From contig WVWN01000078.1 of NCBI GenBank assembly GCA_011773985.1, positions 39,151-103,150 on the forward strand: 64,000 nt of DNA, given 5' to 3'. This DNA comes from Candidatus Zixiibacteriota bacterium. GTDB taxonomy: Bacteria > RBG-13-66-14 > B26-G2 > WVWN01. The notes beneath the pieces were generated by a model. The model was not told the DNA's origin. It made no database searches and saw nothing but the letters and a program-made list of their open reading frames with translations. The position numbers and the translations under genes were made by a program. This document shows positions 11,165 to 56,100 of the stretch, one piece after another (position 1 is the stretch's first letter; the number at the start of each line of letters is the position of its first letter).

Positions 11165-11698
11165 ATGGAAGATAGAATTAAAGAGTTGTTGCCCGAGTTG
11201 GCAGATATCGAGGAGGGGGCGCTACGCGATAAAGTAGTCGCGGTGTACAAGGCAGCGCTCGAGCGCGGCGGCTGGCAACCGGAAGATATGGCACGCCTCC
11301 CGTCCACGCTTTTAATAGATCCGCCGCCCGCCACGTACGTCGAGCACACGCGCGCCGTCACGCGGTGTGCCGTCGCCGCGGCGGAGGCGATGGCGGCAGT
11401 ATACGGTTCCCGGGTGAATATAAACCGCGACCACCTGGTCGCCGCGGGCCTTCTTCACGACGTCGGCAAGCTCTTGGAGTATCGCGAGGAGGGCGGCAAA
11501 TTCGTCAAGTCGGAGCTGGGCCGGATGCTCCGGCACCCGTTGTCTGGTGCCGCGCTCTGCTACGGGTTCGGCCTTCCCCCGGAAGTAACCCACGTCGTCG
11601 CGACGCACGCCCGCGAGGGCGAGGGCGCCCGGGCGACGCCGGAGGCGATAATAATTCACCACGCCGACTTCATCAACTTTGAGCCGTTTAAATTGTGA
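11165..11698 (+). CDS. HD-domain phosphohydrolase
   Basis: HTRAVTRCAV...AGLLHDVGK conserved H...HD metal-binding residues. 177 aa. Confidence 0.6.
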   Translation: MEDRIKELLPELADIEEGALRDKVVAVYKAALERGGWQPEDMARLPSTLLIDPPPATYVEHTRAVTRCAVAAAEAMAAVYGSRVNINRDHLVAAGLLHDVGKLLEYREEGGKFVKSELGRMLRHPLSGAALCYGFGLPPEVTHVVATHAREGEGARATPEAIIIHHADFINFEPFKL

Positions 11699-12963
11699 AG
11701 AGTGGCAACGCGCAAACGTTCGCCGAAAAGATATTTTCGCGTAAGACGGGCCGGCCGGTGGCCGCCGGTGAAATAGTCGTGCTCGAGCCCGACCGTCTCC
11801 TCTCCCACGACAACGCCGCGGCCATCGCGAAGACCTTCGCGGAATTCGGCCTGAAACGGATTGTGGACCCGGCTAAGGCCGTCATCGTCTTGGACCACTG
11901 CGTCCCGGCGGCCTCGGAAAAATATGCCAAGAACCATCTAGAGATCCGTGAGTTTGTGGAAGAGAACGATATCGAGAACTTCTTCGACGTCGGCGAGGGG
12001 GTGTGCCACCAGGTCTTCGCAGAACAGGGGTTCGCGCTGCCGGGCGAACTTATTCTGGGCGCCGACAGCCACACGACGTCGTACGGCGCTTTCGGTGCGT
12101 TCGCCGCGGGCATAGGTCGGACCGAGATGGCGGCGCTCTACGCTACCGGTAAATTATGGCTTATGTGCCCGGCGTCGCTAAGGATTGAGGTAGCGGGCCA
12201 GTTCGGCGCGGACGTTTACCCTAAAGATTTGATTTTATACATAATAGGCGACCAGGGCGCCGACGGCGCGCTGTACAAGTCGGTGGAGTTCGCCGGGCCG
12301 ACGGTGGCGGCGGCGTCGCTGTCGGGGCGGATGACGCTCTGCAATATGGCCGCGGAGATAGGCGCCAAGAACGCGTACGCCGCCCCGGACGAAAAGACGC
12401 GGGCCTTCCTCGACGGCCGCGCGCGTCGTGAGTACGACGAGGTCTTCCCGGACGACGGCGCCGCGTACGAGCGAACGCTCTCGTACGACGTCGCCGGCCT
12501 CGAGCCCCAAGTAGCGGCCCCCCACCGCGTAGACAACGTCGTCCACGTAACGGAGTTGGTGGGTACGCGCGTGGACCAGGTCGTCGTCGGGACCTGCACC
12601 AACGGCCGCGTCGACGATTTAGTGGTGGGGGCGAATATCCTGCGGAACCGGCAGGTGGCACCGGGCGTGCGCGTCCTCGTCTTTCCGGCGAGCCGGGCGG
12701 TTTACCTCGAGGCCCTGGGGATCGGCGCGCTGGCGACGTTGGCCGAGGCGGGTTGCGTAATTATGAACCCGGGTTGCGGGCCGTGCCTCGGCGCCCACGA
12801 GGGAATCCTGGCCGCGGGCGAGGTTTGCCTCTCGACCGCGAACCGCAACTTCCGCGGCCGCATGGGCTCGACGGAAGCCGAGATTTATTTATGCTCGCCG
12901 GCGACCGCGGCGGCTTCGGCTTTATGCGGAAGGATTACCGACCCCCGGACGGTGAGGGCGTGA
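11695..12963 (+). CDS. aconitase-family large subunit (3-isopropylmalate dehydratase / homoaconitase LeuC-like, 420-aa type)
   Basis: ILGADSHTTSYGAFGAFAAGIG, VVGTCTNGRVDD and NPGCGPCLGAHEG Fe-S cysteine ligands. 422 aa. Confidence 0.8.
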   Translation: MKSGNAQTFAEKIFSRKTGRPVAAGEIVVLEPDRLLSHDNAAAIAKTFAEFGLKRIVDPAKAVIVLDHCVPAASEKYAKNHLEIREFVEENDIENFFDVGEGVCHQVFAEQGFALPGELILGADSHTTSYGAFGAFAAGIGRTEMAALYATGKLWLMCPASLRIEVAGQFGADVYPKDLILYIIGDQGADGALYKSVEFAGPTVAAASLSGRMTLCNMAAEIGAKNAYAAPDEKTRAFLDGRARREYDEVFPDDGAAYERTLSYDVAGLEPQVAAPHRVDNVVHVTELVGTRVDQVVVGTCTNGRVDDLVVGANILRNRQVAPGVRVLVFPASRAVYLEALGIGALATLAEAGCVIMNPGCGPCLGAHEGILAAGEVCLSTANRNFRGRMGSTEAEIYLCSPATAAASALCGRITDPRTVRA

Positions 12964-12967
12964 GCGT

Positions 12968-13096
12968 ATGGAGTCGTTAGTGTTTATAATCGTAATCATC
13001 TTGTTGGTCCTGGCTATTTTGCTCGTCGTCGCGCTCGCCGCCATAATGCTGGCGACGTGGCTATCGTCGCGGGGTAAGCGAGATGATAAGAGGTAA
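12968..13096 (+). CDS. tiny hydrophobic ORF between the aconitase-family subunit genes (possibly spurious)
   Basis: ATG at 12968 to TAA at 13094-13096, 42 codons: MESLVFIIVIILLVLAILLVVALAAIMLATWLSSRGKRDDKR. One predicted transmembrane helix plus a basic tail. It exactly fills the LeuC-LeuD-like gap and overlaps the LeuD-like start. Confidence 0.2.
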   Translation: MESLVFIIVIILLVLAILLVVALAAIMLATWLSSRGKRDDKR

Positions 13097-13577
13097 GGTT
13101 TGGAAGTACGGCGACGACGTCAACACCGACGTCATCTTCCCGGGGCGTTACACGTATACGATAACGGACCCGGGCGAAATCGCCTCCCACGCTCTCGAGG
13201 ACTTGGACCCGACGTTCGCGAAGAACGTTAGGCCAGGGGATATCGTCGTAGCCGGCAAAAACTTCGGCTGCGGCTCGAGCCGCGAGCAGGCCGCGCTGTG
13301 CCTGAAGTACGCGGGCGTGGCCGCGGTGGTCGCGGCATCGTTCGCGCGCATCTTCTTCCGCAACGCCATCAACGGCGGCCTGCCGACCGTAACCGCGCCC
13401 GAAGCCATAGCACGTATAAACGCCGGCGACGAGATAAGCATCGATTTCGAGGCGGGCGAATTGACGGCGGCGGACGGCTCGAGTTACGAGTTCGCGCGGC
13501 TACCGGCGGAGGTTGTCGGCATTCTCGAGGCGGGTGGCCTGGTGCCGTGGGTCAAAAAGGAGTTGGGAGCGAAATGA
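13083..13577 (+). CDS. aconitase-family small subunit (LeuD-like)
   Basis: MIRGKVWKYGDDVNTDVIFPGRY and GKNFGCGSSREQAA swivel-domain motifs. 164 aa. Confidence 0.8.
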   Translation: MIRGKVWKYGDDVNTDVIFPGRYTYTITDPGEIASHALEDLDPTFAKNVRPGDIVVAGKNFGCGSSREQAALCLKYAGVAAVVAASFARIFFRNAINGGLPTVTAPEAIARINAGDEISIDFEAGELTAADGSSYEFARLPAEVVGILEAGGLVPWVKKELGAK

Positions 13578-14035: not shown

Positions 14036-14203
14036 CTTTCCCCGAATGAAAGAATGGCCGTGACGTAAGGTATTTTATCGAATGCGGCTGGTGTTGCTTT
14101 TTTGGGTGGGGTATGGTATTATAATTAAAGAGAGCCAGTTTTAAATTCGCGTTACGATTAAACTCGCCCTAAAAGCAAAGTGATTTCGAAGAGAGGAGTG
14201 GTC

Positions 14204-14947
14204 GTGTTGAAAAAAGTGTTCTTAATCGCGATGGCGGTACTCGCGGCGTCCTCGTGGGCGGCGACGCGCGGCGTGCTCGTCGAGCACTTCGGTTGGACCG
14301 GTTGAGGTTCGTGTCCGGCCGCGGAAAGCGACTTTAGCCGGCTGATAGATAGTTATCCCCGCACGGTCTTATGCCCGATCCAGTGGATGTTCTACGTTTC
14401 CCCCCACGTGAGCCAACGCTTCTCCACTTACTACGGTCAAACGTACGTACCCAACCACTTCACAGACGGCGTCCTCAACCGCATCGGTTCCGGGAATTAC
14501 AGCAACTACGTTGCCGATTATAATACCCGGCGCGTCATCTCCGCGCCTTTGACGGTAACGATTCCGGAGCGTAAGCTGGGGTCCAGTACTGCGTACGCCA
14601 AAGTTCGCGTGGCGCTCGAGGAGAACCTCCCCGCCGGCCATACCATCTACGTCGGCCTGTGGGAGGATAAAGTCGTAGTGGGTGGTACGTACGGGACCAC
14701 GCCGGTCCGCGTCATGGAACGCGACCTAGCGACGACCAGCCTCACCATCGCCAGCAAAGGCCAGACGCAGAATTTCGAGCATACGTTTACGCTTCAAGGT
14801 TCGTGGAAGCGCGCCGACCTCGGCTTGACCGCCTGGGTGCAAGGTCCCAACACCGGACGCGAAGTACACAACGCCGCAACGGTAAAGTTATCCGGCTCCA
14901 GCGTTTCGCCTTCGTCGTTGGGGCGGGTCAAGGCGCTCTTCAATTAA
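14204..14947 (+). CDS. secreted protein of the SLG[RK]V[KR]ALF C-terminal-tail family, interrupted by an in-frame TGA (pseudogene or recoding site)
   Basis: Strong RBS GAGAGGAG (14191-14198), then a GTG at 14204 opening a 33-codon signal peptide (V)LKKVFLIAMAVLAASSWAATRGVLVEHFGWTG. In-frame TGA at 14303-14305. The same frame continues through ORF 14387..14947, ending ...SPSSLGRVKALFN. Hairpin terminator follows. Confidence 0.5.
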
Positions 14948-14972
14948 GTAACTCCCACCCTAACGACTATTA

Positions 14973-14997
14973 AGCCCGCCGTAACGGCGGGCTTTTT
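14973..14997 (+). terminator. rho-independent terminator
   Basis: AGCCCGCCGTAACGGCGGGCT hairpin followed by TTTTT, 25 nt after the stop at 14947. Confidence 0.6.
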
Positions 14998-15014: not shown

Positions 15015-15815
15015 TTAAGCGTGCGCGTCAACGGCAGCTTCACCGCGTACGGTTACGATAACGTCCTCGAAAGGTATGTCCTTGCCGGACGCCTTGAGCG
15101 CGTCTTTCGCCACCTGCACTAAGCCGAAGCAACAGGGCACTTCCATATGTAAAACCGTGACTTTGCGTACGTCGTTCGTACGTAGGATCGCCGCTAGCTT
15201 GTCGCGGTATAACGCGGCGTCGTCGAATTTGGGACAACCGATGACCACAGCTTTGCCGCGGAGGAAGTCGGGGTGGAAGGCGGCGTAGGCCAAAGGCGCG
15301 CAATCGGCGGCGATCAACAACTCGGCGTCGGCGAAGTACGGGGCGTTGGGGCTTGCGAGGTATAGCTTAACGGGCCACTGGCGGAGTTCCGATTTCAACT
15401 TCCCGTCGAAGGTTGCCTCGGCCTCGACGCATTCTTCGTCGTCCCCCGCCCTAAAATCCATAGTCCGCGCGCCCGGGCAGCTGAGGGTGTGGCTGCCGGC
15501 GCCATGGCTTGCGGCCGGCGTTCGCTCGGCGGCGTGCCCGTGGCGGTGCACGCCCCCTTCACGGCCGAGTTCTTTCAGGTGTTCTTCCACCGCGCCGGCG
15601 TCGAACTCTTCCGCGGAGCGCTCCTCGATGGTTATGGCGTCTTGCGGGCACTCCCCCAGGCAGGCGCCCAAGCCGTCGCAATAAGTTTCGCTTACAAGGC
15701 GCGCCTTGCCGTCGACGATTCGAATGGCCCCTTCGGCGCACGACGGGACGCACAAGCCACAGCCGTCGCACAGTCCTTCGTCGATCTTAACGATTTTGCG
15801 CGTAACCTTAGCCAT
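15015..15815 (-). CDS. 4Fe-4S dicluster ferredoxin-domain protein with a Cys-rich C-terminal domain
   Basis: N-terminal CDGCGLCVPSC and CDGLGACLGECP cluster motifs. C-terminal ADCAPLAYAAF...VIGCPKFDD...MEVPCCFG. Downstream of crp/fnr on the same strand. Confidence 0.55.
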   Translation of the reverse strand: MAKVTRKIVKIDEGLCDGCGLCVPSCAEGAIRIVDGKARLVSETYCDGLGACLGECPQDAITIEERSAEEFDAGAVEEHLKELGREGGVHRHGHAAERTPAASHGAGSHTLSCPGARTMDFRAGDDEECVEAEATFDGKLKSELRQWPVKLYLASPNAPYFADAELLIAADCAPLAYAAFHPDFLRGKAVVIGCPKFDDAALYRDKLAAILRTNDVRKVTVLHMEVPCCFGLVQVAKDALKASGKDIPFEDVIVTVRGEAAVDAHA

Positions 15816-15934: not shown

Positions 15935-16627
15935 CTAGTCGTCTTGGCTACCGGCTATAAGGCGGAGCGAGGGTTTGTCCAAGATAATTAGCCGCTGGCC
16001 CTCGGATGCGACTAGGCCCGCGTCGGCGAAGCGACGCAGCGCGCGGCTCAGCGTCTCGGGGATGGTCCCCAACGCCGCGGCGAGCGACGTTTTGGTCACG
16101 TCCAAAGCGACGTATTCGCCTCCTTCCGCGTCGGCCCGCGCGTGTTCCAGAAGGTAGGAGGCGAGCCGCGCCGGCACGTCTTTAAGGGTAAGCTTCTCGA
16201 GGACCGCGCTAATCTGGTTAAGACGTACCGACAGGGCGGCTACAATGTTCAGCGCCAAGTTCGGTTCGTTTTTTACGAGCGCGACGAACTCGCGGCGCGG
16301 CACCTCGACCGCGGCGGCGTCGTCGAGGGCCTGCGCGGTGGCGGGGTACGGGACGCCCGCCAGCGCCGCGGCCTCGCCGACCAGGTCCCCTTCCCTCATG
16401 ATTTTTATAATTAACTCGCGGCCGTCGATCGATTCTTTGAAGACCTTAACCTGCCCCGACGCGATGACGTAGAAAGCCGCGGCGTCGTCGCCCTCGCGGA
16501 AAAGCGCCTCTCCCTTCTCGAGCTCGCGGAAGACGCAGCGTTCGGCGACGCGGCCCACGTCGGCGGAGGCGAAATCTTTGAAGAGCGGCGACGCACGCAA
16601 TGCGGCGATCATGGCGGCTTCGGCCAT
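15935..16627 (-). CDS. Crp/Fnr family transcriptional regulator
   Basis: cNMP-binding beta-roll (FREGDDAAAFYVIASGQVKVF) plus a C-terminal HTH (TKTSLAAALGTIPETLSRALRRF). 230 aa. Confidence 0.8.
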   Translation of the reverse strand: MAEAAMIAALRASPLFKDFASADVGRVAERCVFRELEKGEALFREGDDAAAFYVIASGQVKVFKESIDGRELIIKIMREGDLVGEAAALAGVPYPATAQALDDAAAVEVPRREFVALVKNEPNLALNIVAALSVRLNQISAVLEKLTLKDVPARLASYLLEHARADAEGGEYVALDVTKTSLAAALGTIPETLSRALRRFADAGLVASEGQRLIILDKPSLRLIAGSQDD

Positions 16628-19229: not shown

Positions 19230-20477
19230 GTGGCCACGATCGTAGAAAAGATAATCGCGGCCCACTCCGCGGACGACGTCTACGCCGGCGCGACGGTCTG
19301 GCTCGAGCTTGACGTCCGCGCGGCGCGGGACTTCGGCGGCGCGAGCGTCGTGAAAAATTTCGAGAAGCACTACCCAGGCCAAAAGGTGGCCGAAGCCGGC
19401 AAGACGTTCTTCACCTTCGACTGCGTCGTCCCCGCGAACAACATCCCCTACGCCAATAACCAGCAGCTGTGCCGCGAGTTCGCGGCGCGACAGGGCGTCA
19501 AAGTTTTCGACGTCGACGCCGGCATCGGCTCGCACGTCTTGATGGAGGAAGGGCTCGCCCGCCCGGGCCAGACCGTCGTCAACACCGACAGCCATATGAA
19601 TGTGGTCGGCGCGATCGGCTGCCTCGGCCAGGGCATGGGCGACGCAGATGTTGCTTTTGCCTTCCGCGCAGGCTGGACCTGGCTCGAAGTTCCGCCGTCG
19701 GTCAAAGTAGTATTAAACGGTAAATTCAAATGGCCCACGACGGCGAAGGACCTGGCGCTCGCGCTGTTGCGCGAGTTCGGCTCGAGCCGGTTGCTGGGCA
19801 AGGCGGTGGAATTGTACGGCCCGGCCGCCGAACGCCTTTCTCTCGAGGAAAGGATTACGGTGGCGTCAATGGCGACGGAGATGGGCGCGGTCGGAATCTT
19901 TATGCCGCCGAGCGACGAGGTACTCGAGTGGTGCGGCGGCGCCGCCGGCGCCGAGGTGGAAGGGGTTTACGCCGACGAGGACGCGTCGTACGAGGCGACG
20001 TACGAGCTCGACGTCGACGGCCTCGAGCCGCTGGTGGCGTGTCCGCCGTCCCCGGCTAACGTGAAAAGCGCCAGCGATGTCGCAGGGAGGGAGATCGGCT
20101 CGGCCTTCTTCGGCTCGTGTACCAACGGCCGCCTGGAAGATTTCCGGGCCACGGCGCGCGTGATGTCTGGGCGGCCGGCGGCGGACGGCGTCGTGGCGTA
20201 CGCCGTCCCGGCGACGCGCCGCGTATACGGCGCGATGTTGGCTGAGGGCCTGGCCGCGGAGCTCTTCAGCGCCGGGTTCGTAGTATCCAACGCCGGCTGC
20301 GGCGGCTGCGCTCAGGGCCAGATAGGTATGACTGGCAAAGGTGAAGTCCAGGTCTCGACCTCCAATCGCAACTTCCCCGGCAAACAGGGCGCCGGCGAAA
20401 CGTACTTATGTTCGCCCGCGACGGCCGCGGCGTCGGCTATTATGGGACGCATTACGGACCCGCGGGAGGTAGCCTGA
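19230..20477 (+). CDS. aconitase-family large subunit, second paralog (LeuC/homoaconitase/small aconitase-like)
   Basis: VVNTDSHMNVVGAIG, FGSCTNGRLED and SNAGCGGCAQG cluster ligands. 415 aa. Clearly diverged from the 11695 paralog. Confidence 0.75.
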   Translation: MATIVEKIIAAHSADDVYAGATVWLELDVRAARDFGGASVVKNFEKHYPGQKVAEAGKTFFTFDCVVPANNIPYANNQQLCREFAARQGVKVFDVDAGIGSHVLMEEGLARPGQTVVNTDSHMNVVGAIGCLGQGMGDADVAFAFRAGWTWLEVPPSVKVVLNGKFKWPTTAKDLALALLREFGSSRLLGKAVELYGPAAERLSLEERITVASMATEMGAVGIFMPPSDEVLEWCGGAAGAEVEGVYADEDASYEATYELDVDGLEPLVACPPSPANVKSASDVAGREIGSAFFGSCTNGRLEDFRATARVMSGRPAADGVVAYAVPATRRVYGAMLAEGLAAELFSAGFVVSNAGCGGCAQGQIGMTGKGEVQVSTSNRNFPGKQGAGETYLCSPATAAASAIMGRITDPREVA

Positions 20478-21013
20478 TGGCGGCGAGGCCTTTTGTACTC
20501 GAAGGCCCGGTTTGGCCCATTGTAGGAGCGTTAGGGACTTTTCTGAACGACGTAGACACGGACCAAATCTATCACAACGCCCACCTCGCCGTTACCGACG
20601 TTGACGAGATGGGCCAATACGCTTTCGGCAACCTCGCGGGCTGGGAGGATTTCCCGAAGAAAGCGAAGCCGGGCGACATACTCGCGGTGGGCGCGAACTT
20701 CGGCGCGGGCTCGAGCCGTCAGCATGCGGTGGATTGCTTCCGCGCGCTGGGCGTCGCCGGCGTCGTCGGCTTATCCTTCGGCGCTATCTACAAGCGGAAC
20801 GCGACCAATGCCGGCTGGCCGCTTATGGAATGCCCGCGACTGGCCGAGCTCGAGCTGGCGCCGGGCGACGTTTTGAGGATGAACCTGGAGACGGGCAAGG
20901 TGGCGAACGTAACGAAGGGCAAAGCGGTACCGGCGCGGCCGTTCTCGCGCGTCCAAAAGGATATTTACTCTGCGGGGGGCCTACTCGCGTACGGCGCGAA
21001 ACTCGCCAGCTGA
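20477..21013 (+). CDS. aconitase-family small subunit, second paralog (LeuD-like)
   Basis: ATG at 20477 overlaps the large-subunit stop (TGATG). MAARPFVLEGPVWPIVGALGTFLNDVDTDQIYH and GANFGAGSSRQHAV. About 178 aa. The six-frame ORF begins upstream (20408), out of context. Confidence 0.75.
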   Translation: MAARPFVLEGPVWPIVGALGTFLNDVDTDQIYHNAHLAVTDVDEMGQYAFGNLAGWEDFPKKAKPGDILAVGANFGAGSSRQHAVDCFRALGVAGVVGLSFGAIYKRNATNAGWPLMECPRLAELELAPGDVLRMNLETGKVANVTKGKAVPARPFSRVQKDIYSAGGLLAYGAKLAS

Positions 21014-22464: not shown

Positions 22465-23907
22465 TCACTTCCAGTGGCCGCTGATGAACTCCTCGACCTC
22501 TGGAAGGCCCCCTTGGAGGATTAGGTAGCCGTTGGTGGGCTCGCGGTCGGTAATCTCGCCGGCGACGGGGGTGAGCATTATCCTCCTGACCTCGTCAAGG
22601 TCGTCGGTCCGACCGAGGGCCCAACAAAGCTTAACGTACGCGACCTCCGGCAGCATGTTCTGGGCGGGGATGACGCCGAGGCGTTGCATGTCGCGGCCGG
22701 TCTCGTAGACATCCATGTGGACGTAACCCCATAGCGTTTGGACCGTCATATACACAGCGACGCGGGCCTCCTGGGCGCGCTTGAGTGCCGGGTAGCACGG
22801 CTTGTTGACGTGGCCGAGGCCCGTCCCGGCAATGACGATGCCGCGATAGCCCAGGTCGACGAGCGCGTCGAGGATGTCCGGATACATATTCGGGTAATAA
22901 TATATCAACGCCACGCGCTCCTCGAAGGCGGTGTTGAGTACGCATTTGCGGTCGCCGGGGCGGCGCCGGGCGTAATCGTCGCGCAGGGGCGCGATACGCT
23001 CGCGGTTTACGGTCGCGAGCGGGACGTCGCCGATTGTGCGGAACGTTGAGCGGTAGGAGGAGTGCATCTTGCGGACGCGGGTGCCGCGGTGGAGGAGGCC
23101 GTACAGGTCCGAGGTGGGCCCGAACATACACACCATAACCTCGGCTATATCCGATTCCGCCGCGGCTTTAGCGGCGTGGATGAGGTTGAGCGCGGCGTCG
23201 GAGGAGGGGCGGTCGCTGGAGCGCTGGCTCCCGACGAGGACGACGGGGACGGGCGATTTCTGGACCATAAACGAGAGGACCGCGGCGGTGTGGTGCATGG
23301 TATCGGTGCCGTGGCCCACGACGATGCCGTCGACGCCCTTTTCGATCTCGCGGGCGATGGCCTTCGCGAGCACTACGTACTCTTGGGCCCCCATATTTTC
23401 AGAGAAGACGCCAAAGAGCTTCTCGGTTTCTAGATTACAGATGTCGGCGAGTTCCGGGACCGCGCCGTACAACTCGCCGGGCGTGAAGGCCGGAATGACG
23501 GCGCCGGTGCGGTAGTCGAGGCGGGAGGCGATGGTGCCGCCGGTTCCCAGGAGTTTGACGAACGGCCGGCCTTCCTTGAAGGGGAATTCCTTTTCCGGTA
23601 TCTTGTAGTGGGCGACGGCGTACCCGGTCTCTTTTATATCGGTTATAGCGTCGACGGCCACGCCGACATTATAACCGGAGGCGATCTTGATGACTATGTG
23701 CTGGTCGTCGCCGGACTCGGCGCGGGGGAGAACCCGTCCCTCGAAGCGGCCCCGGCTCGAGTCGATGAGGACATCGCTCCAGACTTTGACGCCGAATTTT
23801 TTTAGGCATTCGAGGGCGGCACCGCGGTAACCTTTGTGGAGATCTTGTGCCGGGGCCTTTGGAGCCTTTTTCCGTACCGTATTTTTATTTCGGGGCGGGC
23901 GAGCCAT
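22465..23907 (-). CDS. gatD: glutamyl-tRNA(Gln) amidotransferase subunit D, archaeal-type (asparaginase family)
   Basis: GatD-specific N-terminal domain (EGRVLPRAESGDDQHIVIKIASGYNVGVAVDAITDI), followed by the asparaginase fold LLGTGGTIAS...GIVVGHGTDTM. 480 aa. Confidence 0.65.
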   Translation of the reverse strand: MARPPRNKNTVRKKAPKAPAQDLHKGYRGAALECLKKFGVKVWSDVLIDSSRGRFEGRVLPRAESGDDQHIVIKIASGYNVGVAVDAITDIKETGYAVAHYKIPEKEFPFKEGRPFVKLLGTGGTIASRLDYRTGAVIPAFTPGELYGAVPELADICNLETEKLFGVFSENMGAQEYVVLAKAIAREIEKGVDGIVVGHGTDTMHHTAAVLSFMVQKSPVPVVLVGSQRSSDRPSSDAALNLIHAAKAAAESDIAEVMVCMFGPTSDLYGLLHRGTRVRKMHSSYRSTFRTIGDVPLATVNRERIAPLRDDYARRRPGDRKCVLNTAFEERVALIYYYPNMYPDILDALVDLGYRGIVIAGTGLGHVNKPCYPALKRAQEARVAVYMTVQTLWGYVHMDVYETGRDMQRLGVIPAQNMLPEVAYVKLCWALGRTDDLDEVRRIMLTPVAGEITDREPTNGYLILQGGLPEVEEFISGHWK

Positions 23908-26304: not shown

Positions 26305-28254
26305 TTATCGTTCTTTCGCCTTGGGCAGGAATTTCTCGGTGACGATTTCGGCGAGTTCGGCGCCGGGGACGAGCCCCCGCAACTCGGCCATGAGCTCGCC
26401 CATGGCGTAGCGTTTCATCGCCGCGGGGCCGTTGGGGAACCGGCGCACCTTGATCTTACGTTCCACTTTCTTCGCTATTTCGGGAAGCCGTGCTGTTACC
26501 TTGCCGCGGTGCGTCAGGTCGTTGAGGATGCTGCGCAGCGGCGCGCCGTGGGACAGATACGCCTCGAGCGCCGCGGTTAAGGCCTCCCGCGAAATCTTTC
26601 CCCGGCCGTAAAGGCTGAACGTCCTTTCGACGTCGCTTGGGGCGAGGTCGTCTACCGCCCAGCCGCGGCGGCGCCATCCTTTCATCTTGTGCGTTAACGT
26701 CGTCGCTGCGAACTTCGGCTCGACGCCGTGTTCTTCGACGACTTTTTCGAACGTTTCGGCCCAGCGGGACGCGGCGAGGGGCGCGACGCAATCCTCCGGG
26801 ACACCCCACTCGCGGTAGCGGCCTTCGCGGGTCCATATAGGCTCGGGGAGTTCGCTCGCCAACGCCGCGACCCGCTCTTCGGGAATTTTAATCGGCGGCC
26901 GGTCCGTATCGGGGTACATGCGGTCCGGCCCGGGCAGGATTCGTTCGAAGCCCGTCGTGCCGTCGGCTAGGGCCTGGCGCGTCTCCGACGGTACTCCTAT
27001 CGTCGCCTCGTGGGCGCGGAGGACGATCTCGTCGGCGCCCAGGCGCGCGTCCTCGGCCGGGCCCCAAACCAGGACGACGACGTCGCGGTCCCGCGCCTTG
27101 AGTTTACGGCGGAGGCGGCGCCACGTCTCGTCGCCGAGTTGGCGCGAGGAGGTTTCGTCGTCGAAGACGTTTGGCAGGCGATCGAGGCACGCGACTACGC
27201 GTACGCGATCCGAAATTTCGTCGACGAAGCTTTTGGTCTCCTGGGTACGCGCGCCGAGGATGCCGCGAAAACCGCGGAGCGCCACCGCGTACGCGTGGCC
27301 GCCTTCTTTCGCGGCCGCGGCGGGCAGATTTTGCCTGTCGCCCGTTGCCGCCGCGGATACGTCTACCACGACGGCGCGAAACGAGCTCTCCGTTATCCCC
27401 CGGCGTTTGAGTTCCGCGTGAATGTCGAGGAGCGCTCGTTGGCGCATGGCCTCGTTGTGGACGAGGCGGGGTATGGCTTTTAAGCGGGGGACGCCCTTGA
27501 TCTCCGCGCGGGTACCGCCCGCGACGGATACGTTTACGTCCTCGCGCGCGGCGCCGATGCCGGTGCGGACGAGGCCGGTGGAACGGGTGAGCCGCCGTAA
27601 GAGCTGCCCGACCTCGGCGATTTCGGCCGGCGTCTCCATATCCGGGTGCGTTACCGTCTCGACGAGCGGCATCCCCAGGCGGTCGGTAAGATATATCCGG
27701 TAGTGCCCTTCGTCGCCCACCTCGCGGCAGGAATCCTCCTCGACGGCGAGCTGTTTTATGCCGATGCGCCTTCCCCGGAAGGGGACATAACCCTCGACGC
27801 CGACGATCGCGGTCCGTTGGAACCCGGTGGGGATGGACCCGTCCAAGTATTGTTTGCGGATGATGTGCATCTCGGAGACGATGTTGCAATTCAACAACAG
27901 CGCGATTTTCAAGCCAATGTCGATCGATTCCTCGTCCATATCGAAGGGCGGCGTATCGTCCATCTCGTACGTGCAGCACGTCTCCTGCTTGGTCCGGTAG
28001 ATGATGTTTTTACGGGTCTTAAACTCCATGAGGGCGGTGCCGTCGTACTCGCCCATTTCGGACAAAGTGGGCCGCATGTGGCGAAGTATTTCGGCGTCGT
28101 AATCGTAGGAATAAATGCCCGCCGGGCAACGGCAGAAGAGCTTCGAAGTGGTCAGGAGTTGTTGGTGGATTTCGAGGCCGCCGCGGAAACCCATCGCGCG
28201 GTAATCGTCGTCCGTAAGGGAACCGAAGGGTCGTACGTTGGTTATGGTGGGCAT
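26305..28254 (-). CDS. gatE: glutamyl-tRNA(Gln) amidotransferase subunit E, archaeal-type (GatB/GatE family)
   Basis: GLEIHQQLLTTSKLFCRCP signature. 649 aa, the GatE size with an AspRS-like insertion (GatB is about 480 aa). C-terminal GatB/YqeY-like helical tail. Confidence 0.65.
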   Translation of the reverse strand: MPTITNVRPFGSLTDDDYRAMGFRGGLEIHQQLLTTSKLFCRCPAGIYSYDYDAEILRHMRPTLSEMGEYDGTALMEFKTRKNIIYRTKQETCCTYEMDDTPPFDMDEESIDIGLKIALLLNCNIVSEMHIIRKQYLDGSIPTGFQRTAIVGVEGYVPFRGRRIGIKQLAVEEDSCREVGDEGHYRIYLTDRLGMPLVETVTHPDMETPAEIAEVGQLLRRLTRSTGLVRTGIGAAREDVNVSVAGGTRAEIKGVPRLKAIPRLVHNEAMRQRALLDIHAELKRRGITESSFRAVVVDVSAAATGDRQNLPAAAAKEGGHAYAVALRGFRGILGARTQETKSFVDEISDRVRVVACLDRLPNVFDDETSSRQLGDETWRRLRRKLKARDRDVVVLVWGPAEDARLGADEIVLRAHEATIGVPSETRQALADGTTGFERILPGPDRMYPDTDRPPIKIPEERVAALASELPEPIWTREGRYREWGVPEDCVAPLAASRWAETFEKVVEEHGVEPKFAATTLTHKMKGWRRRGWAVDDLAPSDVERTFSLYGRGKISREALTAALEAYLSHGAPLRSILNDLTHRGKVTARLPEIAKKVERKIKVRRFPNGPAAMKRYAMGELMAELRGLVPGAELAEIVTEKFLPKAKER

Positions 28255-40168: not shown

Positions 40169-40870
40169 TTATTCGAAAAGGGCTTTCACCTTTCCTAACG
40201 AGGCAGGTGTAACGGCCGTTTCACCGAACGCCAGTTTGTATACGTGTTCGGTTCGGCCGGATACCACCCGGATATACCCGCCGCCGCAGGCGCAACCGGA
40301 TAGCCCGGGCGAGGGCGCCGAAGCGACGATCGAACCCCGCTTCGTCATCTTGTGCAAGTAGCCCGTACCGTACCCGCCCGCGTAAAGGTAGCCGGCGTCG
40401 TAGCCGAGGCAGGTTATCATGAAAGGGACCCGGAAGGAGGCGACCGAGTCCCCGTAAATATCATACTTGTAAAGTAGATAGGGGTACTCGAAGCCGTTTT
40501 CGCAACCCAGAAGTATTGGCCGTCCCAGGTCAACGCCCAAAAATAGTCGGCGGGGGTGACCATGGTTACGTAACTGCCCGTCGTCGTCCGGGTATAAAAA
40601 GCGTTAGGCATGTGTCGCCTGAGACGACGTACGCGTCTCGACAAGTCAGGCCCGCGGGCTCGTAATAAGGAGGGTATTTGCCGATAGTGAAAGAGAATAC
40701 GACGCTTCCGTTGCGCGGCTCGAGCCGGTATAGGGTGTCGGGTTCGTAGTTAAGGCACCATAAGTACGCGCCGTCCCAGCCCAAACCTGTGGGGCCGGTG
40801 CAAGGCGCCGGGAAGGAGGATATTATGCTGCCGAAGGTCCCCCACGTTGCGGCTGCGGTCACAAGGAAGC
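40169..40870 (-). pseudogene. frameshifted gene for a secreted beta-propeller-repeat protein of the SLG[RK]V[KR]ALF tail family
   Basis: Three consecutive overlapping minus-strand ORFs in different frames (40566..40862, 40417..40644, 40169..40540). They carry a repeated G-x-[WY]DG-x-Y-[LF]-[WY] unit (GLGWDGAYLWCL, ALTWDGQYFWVA, LGYDAGYLYAGG) and end ...TPASLGKVKALFE. GGAGG RBS and GTG at about 40881-40898 open a 14-codon signal-like peptide that stops out of frame. Confidence 0.5.
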
Positions 40871-44459: not shown

Positions 44460-46379
44460 TCAGCGCACAAGGACTACGGTCCTCGTTGACGGGGGGGCGG
44501 TTTTGCCGACGCGAAGGCACGCGACGTATACGCCGCTCGCTACCGGCGCGCCCCCGGCGTCGGTTCCGTCCCACTCCGCGACGTATTTTCCGGGCGTTTT
44601 GGCCTCGTTGACGAGGTAGCGGATTAGTTTGCCCGATATATCGTAAACGGCGATCGAGGTCGCGGGCGCGTCGCCGTTAACGGGCGCCACTTCGTACGCG
44701 ATATTGACTTGGGTTACGAACGGGTTGGGGTAGCACCGGGTTATGGCACTCCTGGGTTTGGCCGCGCCGCCCACAGCCCGGACCGCTTTCGGGCCGTAGG
44801 TCCGGACGCGCCCCGAGGAAAGGCGCTCCTCGAGTTTGTAATAGTAGATCGTGCCGTCGTTTACCTTATCGTCGCGGTAGCTGTAGGAGGCCGTCGGTTG
44901 TTCTTCGACGTACGCTATTTCGTAATAGATGGTACTTCCGCTCACGTGATCCCTTATTCCTTTAAAGATAGCCCAGCCCGATCGCTCCGGGGTAGGTTCG
45001 GCTTTCCACCGGATAATAATGGCGCCGCCCTGTACGGCCAGGGTGAAAGGTTGGCGGTCGGCGGCCGGCGCCAGGTATTTACCCGTACGCCAGTGGTTGC
45101 CGCCGAACATGGGCCAGGGGTTGGCGGACGGCTCGTACGCCGCCTCGGTGCGGATCGCCTCGAGGCATCCATTTTGGGCGCCCACGACGACATCCAGGAA
45201 GCCGTCTTCGTCCACGTCCGTTGCCGCGGGCGTGGAGGTAATGCCGGTGCCCGACAGTTTGACGGGGAACCCGCCGGTCGGAGCCCCGTTTTTTTCATAG
45301 GATAAAAGCGTACCGTCGTACGTCACGAGTAATATTTCGGGGAGGCCGTCGCCGTCTGCGTCGACCATCAGGGGGGCCGCGGCTACGGTTTGCCTTAATT
45401 GTTTCGGGAAACCTGGCCTTGATATGCCATCGGCGTCGAAGACGCCGATCGTCGCCCCTTCGATATATCTGGCCCCGCCCACGAAAACCAACGCCAGTTT
45501 GCCCCGGCCGTCTACGTCGCCCACGGCCGCGGGAACGGTTATGGGTTTAGCCCCAAATGATTGCGGCCACCCCGGGCGGAAGGTGCCGTCGGCGTCGACT
45601 ACGTAAGCCAGGCCCGTGGTAGTACCCGCCAGGACCTCGGTTCGCCCGTCGCCGTCTACGTCGGCCAGTACGGGCGCCCCGGCGACCTGTCCGTCGAGCG
45701 CGACGGGCCAACCGGTGGCTTCCGCCCCCGACGTATTGAAGGCGTAAATTTTACGATCTGAGGCTACCACGACTTCCGGCTGTTGGTCGCCGTCGAGGTC
45801 GCCCACCGCGGGGAAGCCGTGTGAAGGCTCTTCGAGCGTAGCGGGCCAACCGCCGATGGCCGTTCCGTTACCGTGGAAGCCGTAGAGGGCGGCGCCAGCG
45901 GTGGCGAATACTTCCAGGCCGCGGTAGTTCGTAAAGTCCTGGACCGCGACCCCGCCCGAGCCCGCGGCGCCGAGTTCCTTCGGCCACCCCGGCACGGGTA
46001 TCCCGTCGTGGCCGAAGGCGTAAAGTTTGCCGTCGCCGGAGGCGAATAGCACCTCCAATTTTCTATCGCCGTCGAGGTCCGCGAGGGCGGGCGAGGAACA
46101 CTCGCCGTGCTGTGCGCCAGTCGAGGCGGGAAAGCCCGAAAGCGGCCTCCCGTTGGCGTCGAGCAAGTAGAGTTTTCCGTCCCAAGTGGCGATCGCGATT
46201 TCGCGACGGCCGTCGCCGTCAACGTCGGCGACCGCGGGCGACGAGTCGTGGCACGGGCCGACGTTGACGGGCCAGCCCTGGATGTATTGCGGCTCGGCGG
46301 CCGTGGCGAATGGCGCGGCGACCGCCAAGCCCACCGCGCTTAAAATTGTCATATTTGTTATATGTTTAGATCTTCCCAC
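44460..46379 (-). CDS. FG-GAP/VCBS repeat beta-propeller protein with a T9SS C-terminal sorting domain (Por_Secre_tail type)
   Basis: Signal peptide. At least 7 FG-GAP repeats (ADVDGDGRREIAIATWDGKLYLLDANG, GDLDGDQQPEVVVASDRKIYAF...). C-terminus CYPNPFVTQVNIAYEV...IAVYDISGKLIRYLVNE...GKYVAEWDGTDAGGAPVASGVYVACLRVG...VVLVR matches the T9SS CTD consensus. Confidence 0.75.
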   Translation of the reverse strand: MGRSKHITNMTILSAVGLAVAAPFATAAEPQYIQGWPVNVGPCHDSSPAVADVDGDGRREIAIATWDGKLYLLDANGRPLSGFPASTGAQHGECSSPALADLDGDRKLEVLFASGDGKLYAFGHDGIPVPGWPKELGAAGSGGVAVQDFTNYRGLEVFATAGAALYGFHGNGTAIGGWPATLEEPSHGFPAVGDLDGDQQPEVVVASDRKIYAFNTSGAEATGWPVALDGQVAGAPVLADVDGDGRTEVLAGTTTGLAYVVDADGTFRPGWPQSFGAKPITVPAAVGDVDGRGKLALVFVGGARYIEGATIGVFDADGISRPGFPKQLRQTVAAAPLMVDADGDGLPEILLVTYDGTLLSYEKNGAPTGGFPVKLSGTGITSTPAATDVDEDGFLDVVVGAQNGCLEAIRTEAAYEPSANPWPMFGGNHWRTGKYLAPAADRQPFTLAVQGGAIIIRWKAEPTPERSGWAIFKGIRDHVSGSTIYYEIAYVEEQPTASYSYRDDKVNDGTIYYYKLEERLSSGRVRTYGPKAVRAVGGAAKPRSAITRCYPNPFVTQVNIAYEVAPVNGDAPATSIAVYDISGKLIRYLVNEAKTPGKYVAEWDGTDAGGAPVASGVYVACLRVGKTAPPSTRTVVLVR

Positions 46380-55449: not shown

Positions 55450-56100
55450 ATGAGAAACGTGCTGATGTTGTTGTCGGCGCTCGTCATAACCGCGGCGGCG
55501 GTCGCGGTCGCGACGGGGAACGAACACGAGGTAGGCGGCCCGCCTGCTAAGGGGCACAAAATCCCATTCTGGTCGGAGAAGCCGGCGATGCGATTTCAAT
55601 GTATGTGGCTACAATCTGAGATAGGCGAAAAGGGTCGCGTCGTCAAGATCGAGTTCAGTTTTAAACAGTACGTGGGGACGCCGCCGTCCACGTTTACGGG
55701 CTGCAAGATACGCTTGTGCCATACCACGGTCAATAAAATCGCGGCCAATTTTAAAAGTAATTACGGCGGAAAGTCGCCGGTCGAAGTCTTCAGCGGCAAG
55801 TTTGTGGTACCCGCGGGCCTTAAGGAGAACGACTGGGTCATGGTGGTTGCGCCGAAGGCTTTCACTTTCAACAATACGAACAATTTGTTGATGGAGGTGG
55901 TCTGGACCGGCGCGAGCGGTGCCGCGGAGGACCGCTTCTGGATAGCAGATGCGGACCAACCCGGACGGGTTAGGGCGTTCAGCGCTACGGCCGTAACCGG
56001 TACGGTTTTGGCGAACCAGGGCCAGGTGGCCAGGATCACGATCGGTAGCCCGGCGGTCGAGCCTAATAGTCTGGGCAGGGTCAGGGCTCTTTTCAGATAA
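55450..56100 (+). CDS. secreted protein of the SLG[RK]V[KR]ALF C-terminal-tail family (intact member)
   Basis: Signal peptide MRNVLMLLSALVITAAAVAVATG. Beta-rich body. C-terminus ...AVEPNSLGRVRALFR. Followed by a strong terminator. Confidence 0.55.
   Translation: MRNVLMLLSALVITAAAVAVATGNEHEVGGPPAKGHKIPFWSEKPAMRFQCMWLQSEIGEKGRVVKIEFSFKQYVGTPPSTFTGCKIRLCHTTVNKIAANFKSNYGGKSPVEVFSGKFVVPAGLKENDWVMVVAPKAFTFNNTNNLLMEVVWTGASGAAEDRFWIADADQPGRVRAFSATAVTGTVLANQGQVARITIGSPAVEPNSLGRVRALFR

Follow-up and report, generated by a model that had tools for sequence, protein, structure and literature searches.

A conserved in-frame UGA in a thioredoxin-like gene of a Zixibacteria-type bacterium probably encodes selenocysteine in the redox motif of a secreted protein

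Selenocysteine (Sec) is very probably what the in-frame TGA at 14303–14305 encodes in a gene from a metagenome-assembled genome (MAG) of a Candidatus Zixiibacteriota bacterium, where the codon falls in the redox motif of a secreted thioredoxin-like protein. The gene lies in a 64-kb stretch of DNA, which we refer to as the window. We propose that positions 14204–14947 form a single gene that would encode a secreted 247-residue selenoprotein and whose UGA would be decoded by the bacterial SelB/tRNA-Sec pathway under the direction of an RNA element within the first roughly 40 nt after the codon; the most conserved part of this putative element is a CGC/RGAA(A)/GCG mini-hairpin with its loop 17–18 nt after the UGA. 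The mature protein is predicted to combine a thioredoxin fold, carrying the active site U34-G-S-C37, with an Omp28-like β-sandwich and a short C-terminal tail. A previous sequence-only reading had listed Sec as one of several explanations for the TGA. The conservation of the codon, the existence of Cys counterparts and a best match to a selenoprotein family now favour this option.

The GTG at 14204, the TGA and the TAA at 14945–14947 share one reading frame, as is evident directly from the sequence (Table 1). The ribosome-binding site that had been proposed upstream of the GTG is present as GAGAGGAG, and in one orthologue (L004) an ATG is aligned to the GTG. Between the GTG and the TGA lie 33 sense codons (MLKKVFLIAMAVLAASSWAATRGVLVEHFGWTG). 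Beyond the TGA the same frame stays open to the C terminus SLGRVKALFN, as described earlier, although over 213 sense codons, the earlier figure of 214 having counted the stop. With the UGA translated as Sec, the residues around codon 34 read HFGWTG-U-GSCPAAESDFSR. Residues 1–247 are matched by tblastn in a single frame in most related loci. The gene has its own ribosome-binding site and a strong terminator, and apart from the TGA it has accumulated no extra stops or frameshifts. That TGA is a genuine stop codon in this genome, as had been argued, is borne out by the many long open reading frames (ORFs) of the window that end in it. A scan for in-frame TGA codons flanked on both sides by coding-like sequence identified 14204–14947 as the sole convincing case in the 64 kb.

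Table 1 Features of the predicted selenoprotein gene and occurrences of its C-terminal tail in the window
Feature	Position	Strand	Basis
Ribosome-binding site GAGAGGAG	14191–14198	+	Read from the sequence; 5 nt before the GTG start
Predicted complete selenoprotein coding sequence, 247 residues, Sec as residue 34, TAA stop	14204–14947	+	One frame except for the TGA
Predicted signal peptide MLKKVFLIAMAVLAASSWA, type I, no lipobox Cys	14204–14260	+	Basic N terminus, hydrophobic core, S-W-A
Predicted thioredoxin-fold domain, residues ~24–112	14273–14539	+	AF2 model of P0082, alignment, PDB profile matches
SECIS candidate region, 44-nt hairpin spanning the UGA	14298–14341	+	Predicted minimum free energy fold, codon anomalies, covariation in sister subfamilies
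UGA as probable Sec codon, first position of the U-G-S-C redox motif	14303–14305	+	TGA column conserved; Cys in homologues
Family-conserved core, CGC / loop GGAAA / GCG	14320–14322 / 14323–14327 / 14328–14330	+	Family comparison
Predicted Omp28-like β-sandwich domain, residues ~115–228	14546–14887	+	Pfam Omp28; Foldseek 5y1a, 2r2c
C-terminal tail SPSSLGRVKALFN, putative sorting tag	14906–14944	+	Common to unrelated secreted proteins of the lineage
Intrinsic terminator, 10-bp stem with 8 GC pairs, then a T run	14972–14994	+	Sequence
Tail occurrences in the window	14906–14944, 56056–56097	+	
Tail occurrence in the window	40172–40213	−	

The sequence-only reading had assigned all 33 codons before the TGA to a signal peptide. 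The length of this piece stands, but the assignment holds only in part. Cleavage is predicted after SWA, which would make ATRGVLVEH the mature N terminus and leave about 19 of the 33 codons to the signal peptide; the equivalent stretch has a low pLDDT in the AF2 model of a Cys-containing homologue (P0082). The remaining 14 codons (ATRGVLVEHFGWTG) are the first of the mature protein, and strand β1 of the thioredoxin fold is encoded among them; alignment to the modelled homologue locates this strand at window residues VLVEHF. Because strand β1 sits before the TGA, the stub upstream of this codon is an integral part of the thioredoxin domain. The pN/pS ratio is 0.19 for the 12 mature codons before the TGA and 0.32 for the first 12 codons after it, values which show that purifying selection acts on both sides of the UGA. 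Orthologues with unrelated upstream sequence and a start of their own had been named as the observation that would speak against a joined gene; the opposite was seen, the upstream segment being in frame and constrained.

To place the TGA among its relatives, we used the joined window protein, with U replaced by C, as the query of a database search. All 42 of the clusters returned were N-terminally truncated proteins of 136–202 residues with starts beyond the TGA position, and the N terminus was covered in none of the 42. From collections of genomes and metagenomes we retrieved the DNA of 31 related loci and examined 27 homologous loci. More than 30 related copies of the gene, from about 27 loci in other assemblies and at 36–86% identity, have their TGA in one and the same column of the alignment. 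In the 27 loci examined, at identities from 85% down to 36%, the frame runs from the signal peptide through a strand-like V-[LV]-x-E-x-F segment and across the TGA at that column. This column corresponds to the first Cys of a CxxC motif. Window orthologues read GWT[GS]-U-GSCP at the redox motif, and a wider scan that included tandem paralogues yielded TATW-U-GYCP, SGIP-U-PYC[PH], T-U-PSCP and DT-U-TYCP. Chance cannot account for a TGA that recurs at an identical alignment position in more than 30 homologues. A syntenic orthologue is found in nine other genomes, with the TGA in all of them, and two more TGA-bearing paralogues lie on another contig of the same MAG (L024, JABAOH010009201); the homologue P0063 has the same GTN49 locus-tag prefix as the source MAG. 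The closed chromosome of Candidatus Coatesbacteria bin961 (CP070633) carries two copies of the Sec form, near 1.667 Mb and 0.362 Mb. Neither the window nor the fetched loci yielded further selenoprotein candidates.

These comparisons bear on several other explanations of the TGA. A recent nonsense mutation would leave a pseudogene that yields no more than the signal-peptide stub, if any product at all. The gene does contain one in-frame stop, and the annotation in GenBank, like that of all gene callers, is limited to the 186-amino-acid piece downstream. The same TGA, however, persists in the more than 30 homologues, down to 36% identity and including the nine syntenic orthologues and both paralogues of the same MAG, while purifying selection acts on both sides of it without further stops or frameshifts; we consider decay of this kind exceedingly improbable. 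An assembly or sequencing artefact at 14303–14305, for which a metagenome bin offers an a priori possibility and nothing more, has a negligible probability, as the gene with its TGA is identical in the NCBI MAG and in independent Logan assemblies of runs ERR2564001 and ERR2564004, and the TGA is present in relatives. The locus could also give two products, a small peptide ending at the TGA and a separate protein initiated at ATG 14387 or another internal start. ATG 14387 (Met62) opens the 186-amino-acid ORF that databases hold (P0001), but this internal start is not conserved, the starts called in homologues being scattered over roughly 30 codons, and the 186-amino-acid form would have neither signal peptide nor redox motif, and neither strand β1 nor helix 1 of the thioredoxin fold. 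The region from the TGA to 14387 is, moreover, conserved as protein, and the Cys homologues are continuous across it, making two products very improbable. Taken together, the conserved TGA, synteny, independent assembly and pN/pS therefore leave no room for a pseudogene, an assembly artefact or a pair of independent genes.

The case for Sec itself comes from exchange with Cys. A second search, with a distant paralogue as query, recovered full-length homologues that have Cys at the TGA column: P0045, P0047 and P0082 read FTATW-C-GYCP, and P0050 reads GTN-C-GYCP. These Cys forms agree with the earlier proposal that a U at this position would give a UxxC pair. At one locus (L034, 3870–6992), two Cys paralogues (CGYCP) and one Sec paralogue lie in tandem. 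Two further copies (L022:2288 and L028:3115) read W-C-P-Y-U-P, with the TGA at the second Cys, 9 nt downstream. W-C-x-Y-C-P is by far the predominant motif of the wider superfamily, which comprises 10,692 cluster representatives at E ≤ 0.001. The UGA occurs only at one or other cysteine of CxxC and alternates with Cys in close relatives, which is the classical signature of a selenoprotein. From these sequence patterns we infer that Sec is actually inserted at the UGA of the window gene.

The UGA might instead be read through without selenium, by near-cognate insertion of Trp or Cys or by a lineage-wide reassignment of the codon (codes 4 or 25). Of the Sec machinery, selA, selB and selD were not seen in the 20 largest ORFs of the window, and neither the window nor the 31 fetched loci yielded a tRNA-Sec; a hairpin after a stop codon can, besides, stimulate readthrough. 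Against this, UGA ends many ordinary window genes and has one credible in-frame occurrence in 64 kb; it falls only at the catalytic Cys of CxxC, with the second Cys taking its place in two copies; and the closest family so far described consists of selenoproteins. Confinement of the UGA to the CxxC cysteines is a mark of Sec/Cys exchange and not of reassignment or leaky termination, and we regard selenium-free decoding as unlikely. Of the options that the sequence-only reading had kept beside Sec, pseudogene, artefact and generic readthrough are accordingly rejected by the conservation of the TGA, by selection and by the Sec/Cys exchange.

Decoding of the UGA as Sec would involve the RNA that follows the codon. 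In the window, the minimum free energy (MFE) fold is a 44-nt hairpin (−26.9 kcal/mol, z = −2.5) that holds the UGA in its lower stem and whose loop follows this codon at a distance of just 12 nt. The feature conserved throughout the family is a CGC/RGAA(N)/GCG mini-hairpin with the loop 17–18 nt past the UGA. This distance falls inside the 16–37 nt that the bSECISearch model allows between the UGA and the apical loop, and it is similar to that of the fdhF SECIS. Codon choice over the same stretch is anomalous. The Glu codon at +7 is GAA in 23 of 23 genes, as compared with 42% elsewhere in the same genes, and for the Ala at +6, 22 of 23 genes use GCA or GCG and none uses GCC (elsewhere, GCA makes up 5% and GCC 51%). 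Codon +5 invariably ends in C, while the encoded residue varies among A, S, G, Y, R and F, and the Ser codon at +8 is always AGC.

Sister subfamilies (16 genes) carry a SECIS-like hairpin at the same place, with a loop that starts 18 nt after the UGA. Its helix is 94.8% paired, against 74.5% in shuffles (none of 500 reaches the observed value) and 20–44% when the 3′ partner is slid, and compensatory changes occur in three of its six pairs (CG/GC/AU at 27:45, AU/GC/UA at 29:43 and CG/GC at 30:42). The CxxU copies have an unrelated 8-bp hairpin, CGGCGAUC-AGGAA-GAUCGCCG, whose loop lies 21 nt after the shifted UGA. The codon anomalies at +5 to +9, the covariation in the sister subfamilies and the movement of the hairpin with the UGA show that the RNA, and not the protein alone, is under selection.

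Within the orthologue group of the window gene, the helices of a hand-specified structure are 80% paired; this group shows no covariation of the proposed helices, and RNAalifold gives it a consensus of only −1.5 kcal/mol. When forced in the window RNA, the 3-bp consensus mini-hairpin lies 8.6 kcal/mol above the MFE fold and has an ensemble probability of approximately zero, and because of this cost we claim no definite SECIS structure for the window RNA. We place the putative SECIS within 14298–14341, with the pairing in the window sequence as a candidate. Since one Cys form (P0050, locus L036) keeps the hairpin, it is not a clean separator of Sec from Cys forms. Rfam returned no match to a SECIS family, either at the gathering threshold or at a permissive E-value. 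A CCGGC/GCCGG stem had been put forward earlier as a weak SECIS candidate. It is present (14315–14319 and 14337–14341) and starts 9 nt after the TGA, but it is kept in 4 of 17 orthologues and was rejected as a conserved SECIS, conservation being found in the CGC-RGAA(A)-GCG core inside it. Like the Escherichia coli fdhF-type SECIS, the window-family element is a hairpin located directly downstream of the UGA inside the coding region; in contrast to it, the loop is RGAA(N) instead of GGUC, there is no bulged U and the upper stem in the window sequence comprises only 3 bp, with a putative role in SelB binding.

To view the protein in three dimensions, we relied on the AF2 model of P0082, a Cys homologue that is 34% identical to the window protein and shares its length and tail, together with the family alignment. 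The model (pLDDT 90.3, pTM 0.85) comprises a thioredoxin fold (residues 26–118), in which the CxxC motif opens helix 1, followed by a β-sandwich (residues 124–231), whereas the last roughly 20 residues, including the tail, are disordered. The thioredoxin fold consists, in order, of a strand (26–32), Cys36 and Cys39 at the start of a helix (39–53), a strand (58–64), a helix (74–83), two strands (90–93 and 97–100) and a helix (106–118). In the corresponding domain of the window protein, UxxC stands at the start of helix 1 and YVPN forms the cis-Pro loop. Both hallmarks of the fold, a CxxC motif at the N terminus of helix 1 and a cis-Pro loop, are thus found as far as the model can tell. A Foldseek search with the P0082 model had HBP35 as its top PDB match (5y1a, E = 1.2e-12, TM 0.69) and also returned an Omp28 domain (2r2c), and a family sequence profile matched HBP35 (motif VVLEVFTAEWCGYCP) and many thioredoxins in the PDB. 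In the window protein, Pfam Omp28 matches residues 72–231 (E = 5e-4) and DUF1223 weakly matches residues 25–52. By analogy with HBP35, a Cys homologue, the window protein is most likely an exported thiol:disulfide oxidoreductase that would work outside the cytoplasm, where Sec34 would attack as the nucleophile and Cys37 would resolve; both its cellular location and its substrate are presumed.

Among known families, the best match is NCBIfam NF045500, ‘Omp28-related selenoprotein’ (E = 9.8e-13, 48.2 bits, residues 20–229). The curated cutoff of this family is 200 bits, and the clade members tested, whether Sec or Cys forms, score 39–87 bits; with 48 bits against 200, the window protein is therefore an unannotated relative and not a member. 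Table 1 of a 2026 review (PMC13188914) equates NF045500 with the UxxC-containing ‘hypothetical protein GOS_C’. Zhang and Gladyshev first predicted GOS_C in 2008, from ocean metagenomes, as a protein of Trx-like fold represented by 74 sequences with Sec and 312 with Cys (PMC2398784). Both groups combine a UxxC-bearing Trx-like fold with an Omp28-like region after it, and in both Cys homologues outnumber Sec forms. However, the NF045500 model spans 377 positions, of which the last roughly 110 have no counterpart in the window protein. The window clade ends in the short SLGRVKALF tail instead, includes CxxU variants and comes from Zixibacteria/Coatesbacteria-type MAGs, not from ocean-surface reads.

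HBP35, the 35-kDa hemin-binding protein of Porphyromonas gingivalis (PDB 5Y1A), likewise has a thioredoxin fold followed by a β-sandwich, and its motif VVLEVFTAEWCGYCP matches that of the window family. HBP35 is a surface protein whose in vitro thioredoxin activity needs two Cys residues and which complements an E. coli dsbA mutant (PMC2907840). It differs from the window protein, with which it shares roughly 16% identity, in having Cys and not Sec and in carrying a T9SS C-terminal domain of about 80 residues in place of a tail of only 13; searching the window protein for the T9SS sorting domain (TIGR04183/PF18962) gave no match. The Omp28 outer-membrane lipoproteins (PF11551, NF033782, PDB 2R2C) share the β-sandwich body, but the window signal peptide contains no Cys and no lipobox, and the window protein stays below both family cutoffs (20.3 versus 34.9 bits for PF11551 and 16.2 versus 150 bits for NF033782). 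Sec-containing thioredoxin-like and thiol:disulfide interchange proteins are similar in having Sec in place of the N-terminal Cys of CxxC. The UGSC-containing protein family (NF041046) has the identical tetrapeptide U-G-S-C; membership was rejected on finding no match at E ≤ 1, and because the model gives no match we take the shared tetrapeptide as a coincidence of redox sites and not as homology. The window protein is thus a divergent Trx-fold UxxC selenoprotein, so read, of the Omp28/HBP35 superfamily, in a clade that current family models miss. In the literature we found nothing specific on Omp28-type selenoproteins or on selenocysteine in Zixibacteria. Elsewhere in the superfamily, P0231 (622 amino acids, beginning VYCPWAEAAIDQL) and other large multidomain members start right after the redox-site position, which suggests, from these starts, further unannotated Sec forms outside the window clade.

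The joined gene corrects a systematic annotation error, in that the public copies (42 database clusters) are recorded as truncated hypothetical proteins without signal peptide or active site. It would also add extracytoplasmic selenoproteins to candidate phyla in which selenium use has barely been described, and the UxxC, CxxU and CxxC variants with their relocated hairpin provide a compact data set on how a bacterial SECIS co-evolves with the position of the Sec codon. More tentatively, and with some doubt on our part, these Zixibacteria/Coatesbacteria-like bacteria may possess a separate unannotated selenoprotein clade whose tandem paralogues switch between UxxC, CxxU and CxxC and are exported to the envelope by an undescribed C-terminal tag (...P-x-S-L-G-R-V-K-A-L-F-x-stop) borne by many unrelated secreted proteins. 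Were this so, a single fold would offer a natural series in which to follow how Sec and Cys replace each other and how the SECIS relocates, and a new sorting system would be indicated. Most worth pursuing are the series of Sec, Cys and CxxU forms and the common tail.

The tail follows the consensus [AV]-x-P-x-S-L-G-[RK]-[VI]-K-A-L-[FY]-x-stop on three otherwise unrelated ORFs of the window and is also present on dozens of unrelated ORFs in related loci (L008, L010, L012, L022, L024, L026, L031 and L034). The tail-bearing proteins have no NCBIfam match. The tail is a different element from the T9SS sorting domain that another window ORF carries (44460–46379, − strand), and it may be an undescribed, lineage-specific tag for sorting or processing.

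At nine syntenic loci, genes for an aconitase-family small subunit, a small lipoprotein and the selenoprotein follow one another in this order; downstream are ferredoxin-like and Crp regulator genes on the other strand and then an isocitrate/isopropylmalate dehydrogenase gene. In the window, the convergent neighbour (15015–15815, − strand) encodes a 266-amino-acid ferredoxin-like protein with 4Fe-4S motifs and an AF_0155 domain. A Crp/Fnr regulator gene (15935–16627, − strand) adjoins it, and both lie beside the selenoprotein gene in all syntenic loci. The locus is flanked by two pairs of aconitase-family large and small subunit genes (11695–13577 and 19230–21013, both on the + strand) that are 38% identical. 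Distant paralogues form tandem arrays of two or three genes in which Sec and Cys forms are mixed (L034, L010, L022, L024, L026 and L027), and a tRNA-Thr/Tyr/Gly cluster is located at most about 1.3 kb upstream of the array in L009, L022, L023, L024, L026, L027 and L028. The window also contains a GatD-like ORF (22465–23907, − strand), with GatD_N and asparaginase domains, and a GatE-like ORF (26305–28254, − strand), in which a GatB_N catalytic domain with a large insertion is combined with a GatB_Yqey domain. The pair resembles the archaeal-type GatDE amidotransferase and is unusual in a bacterial bin.
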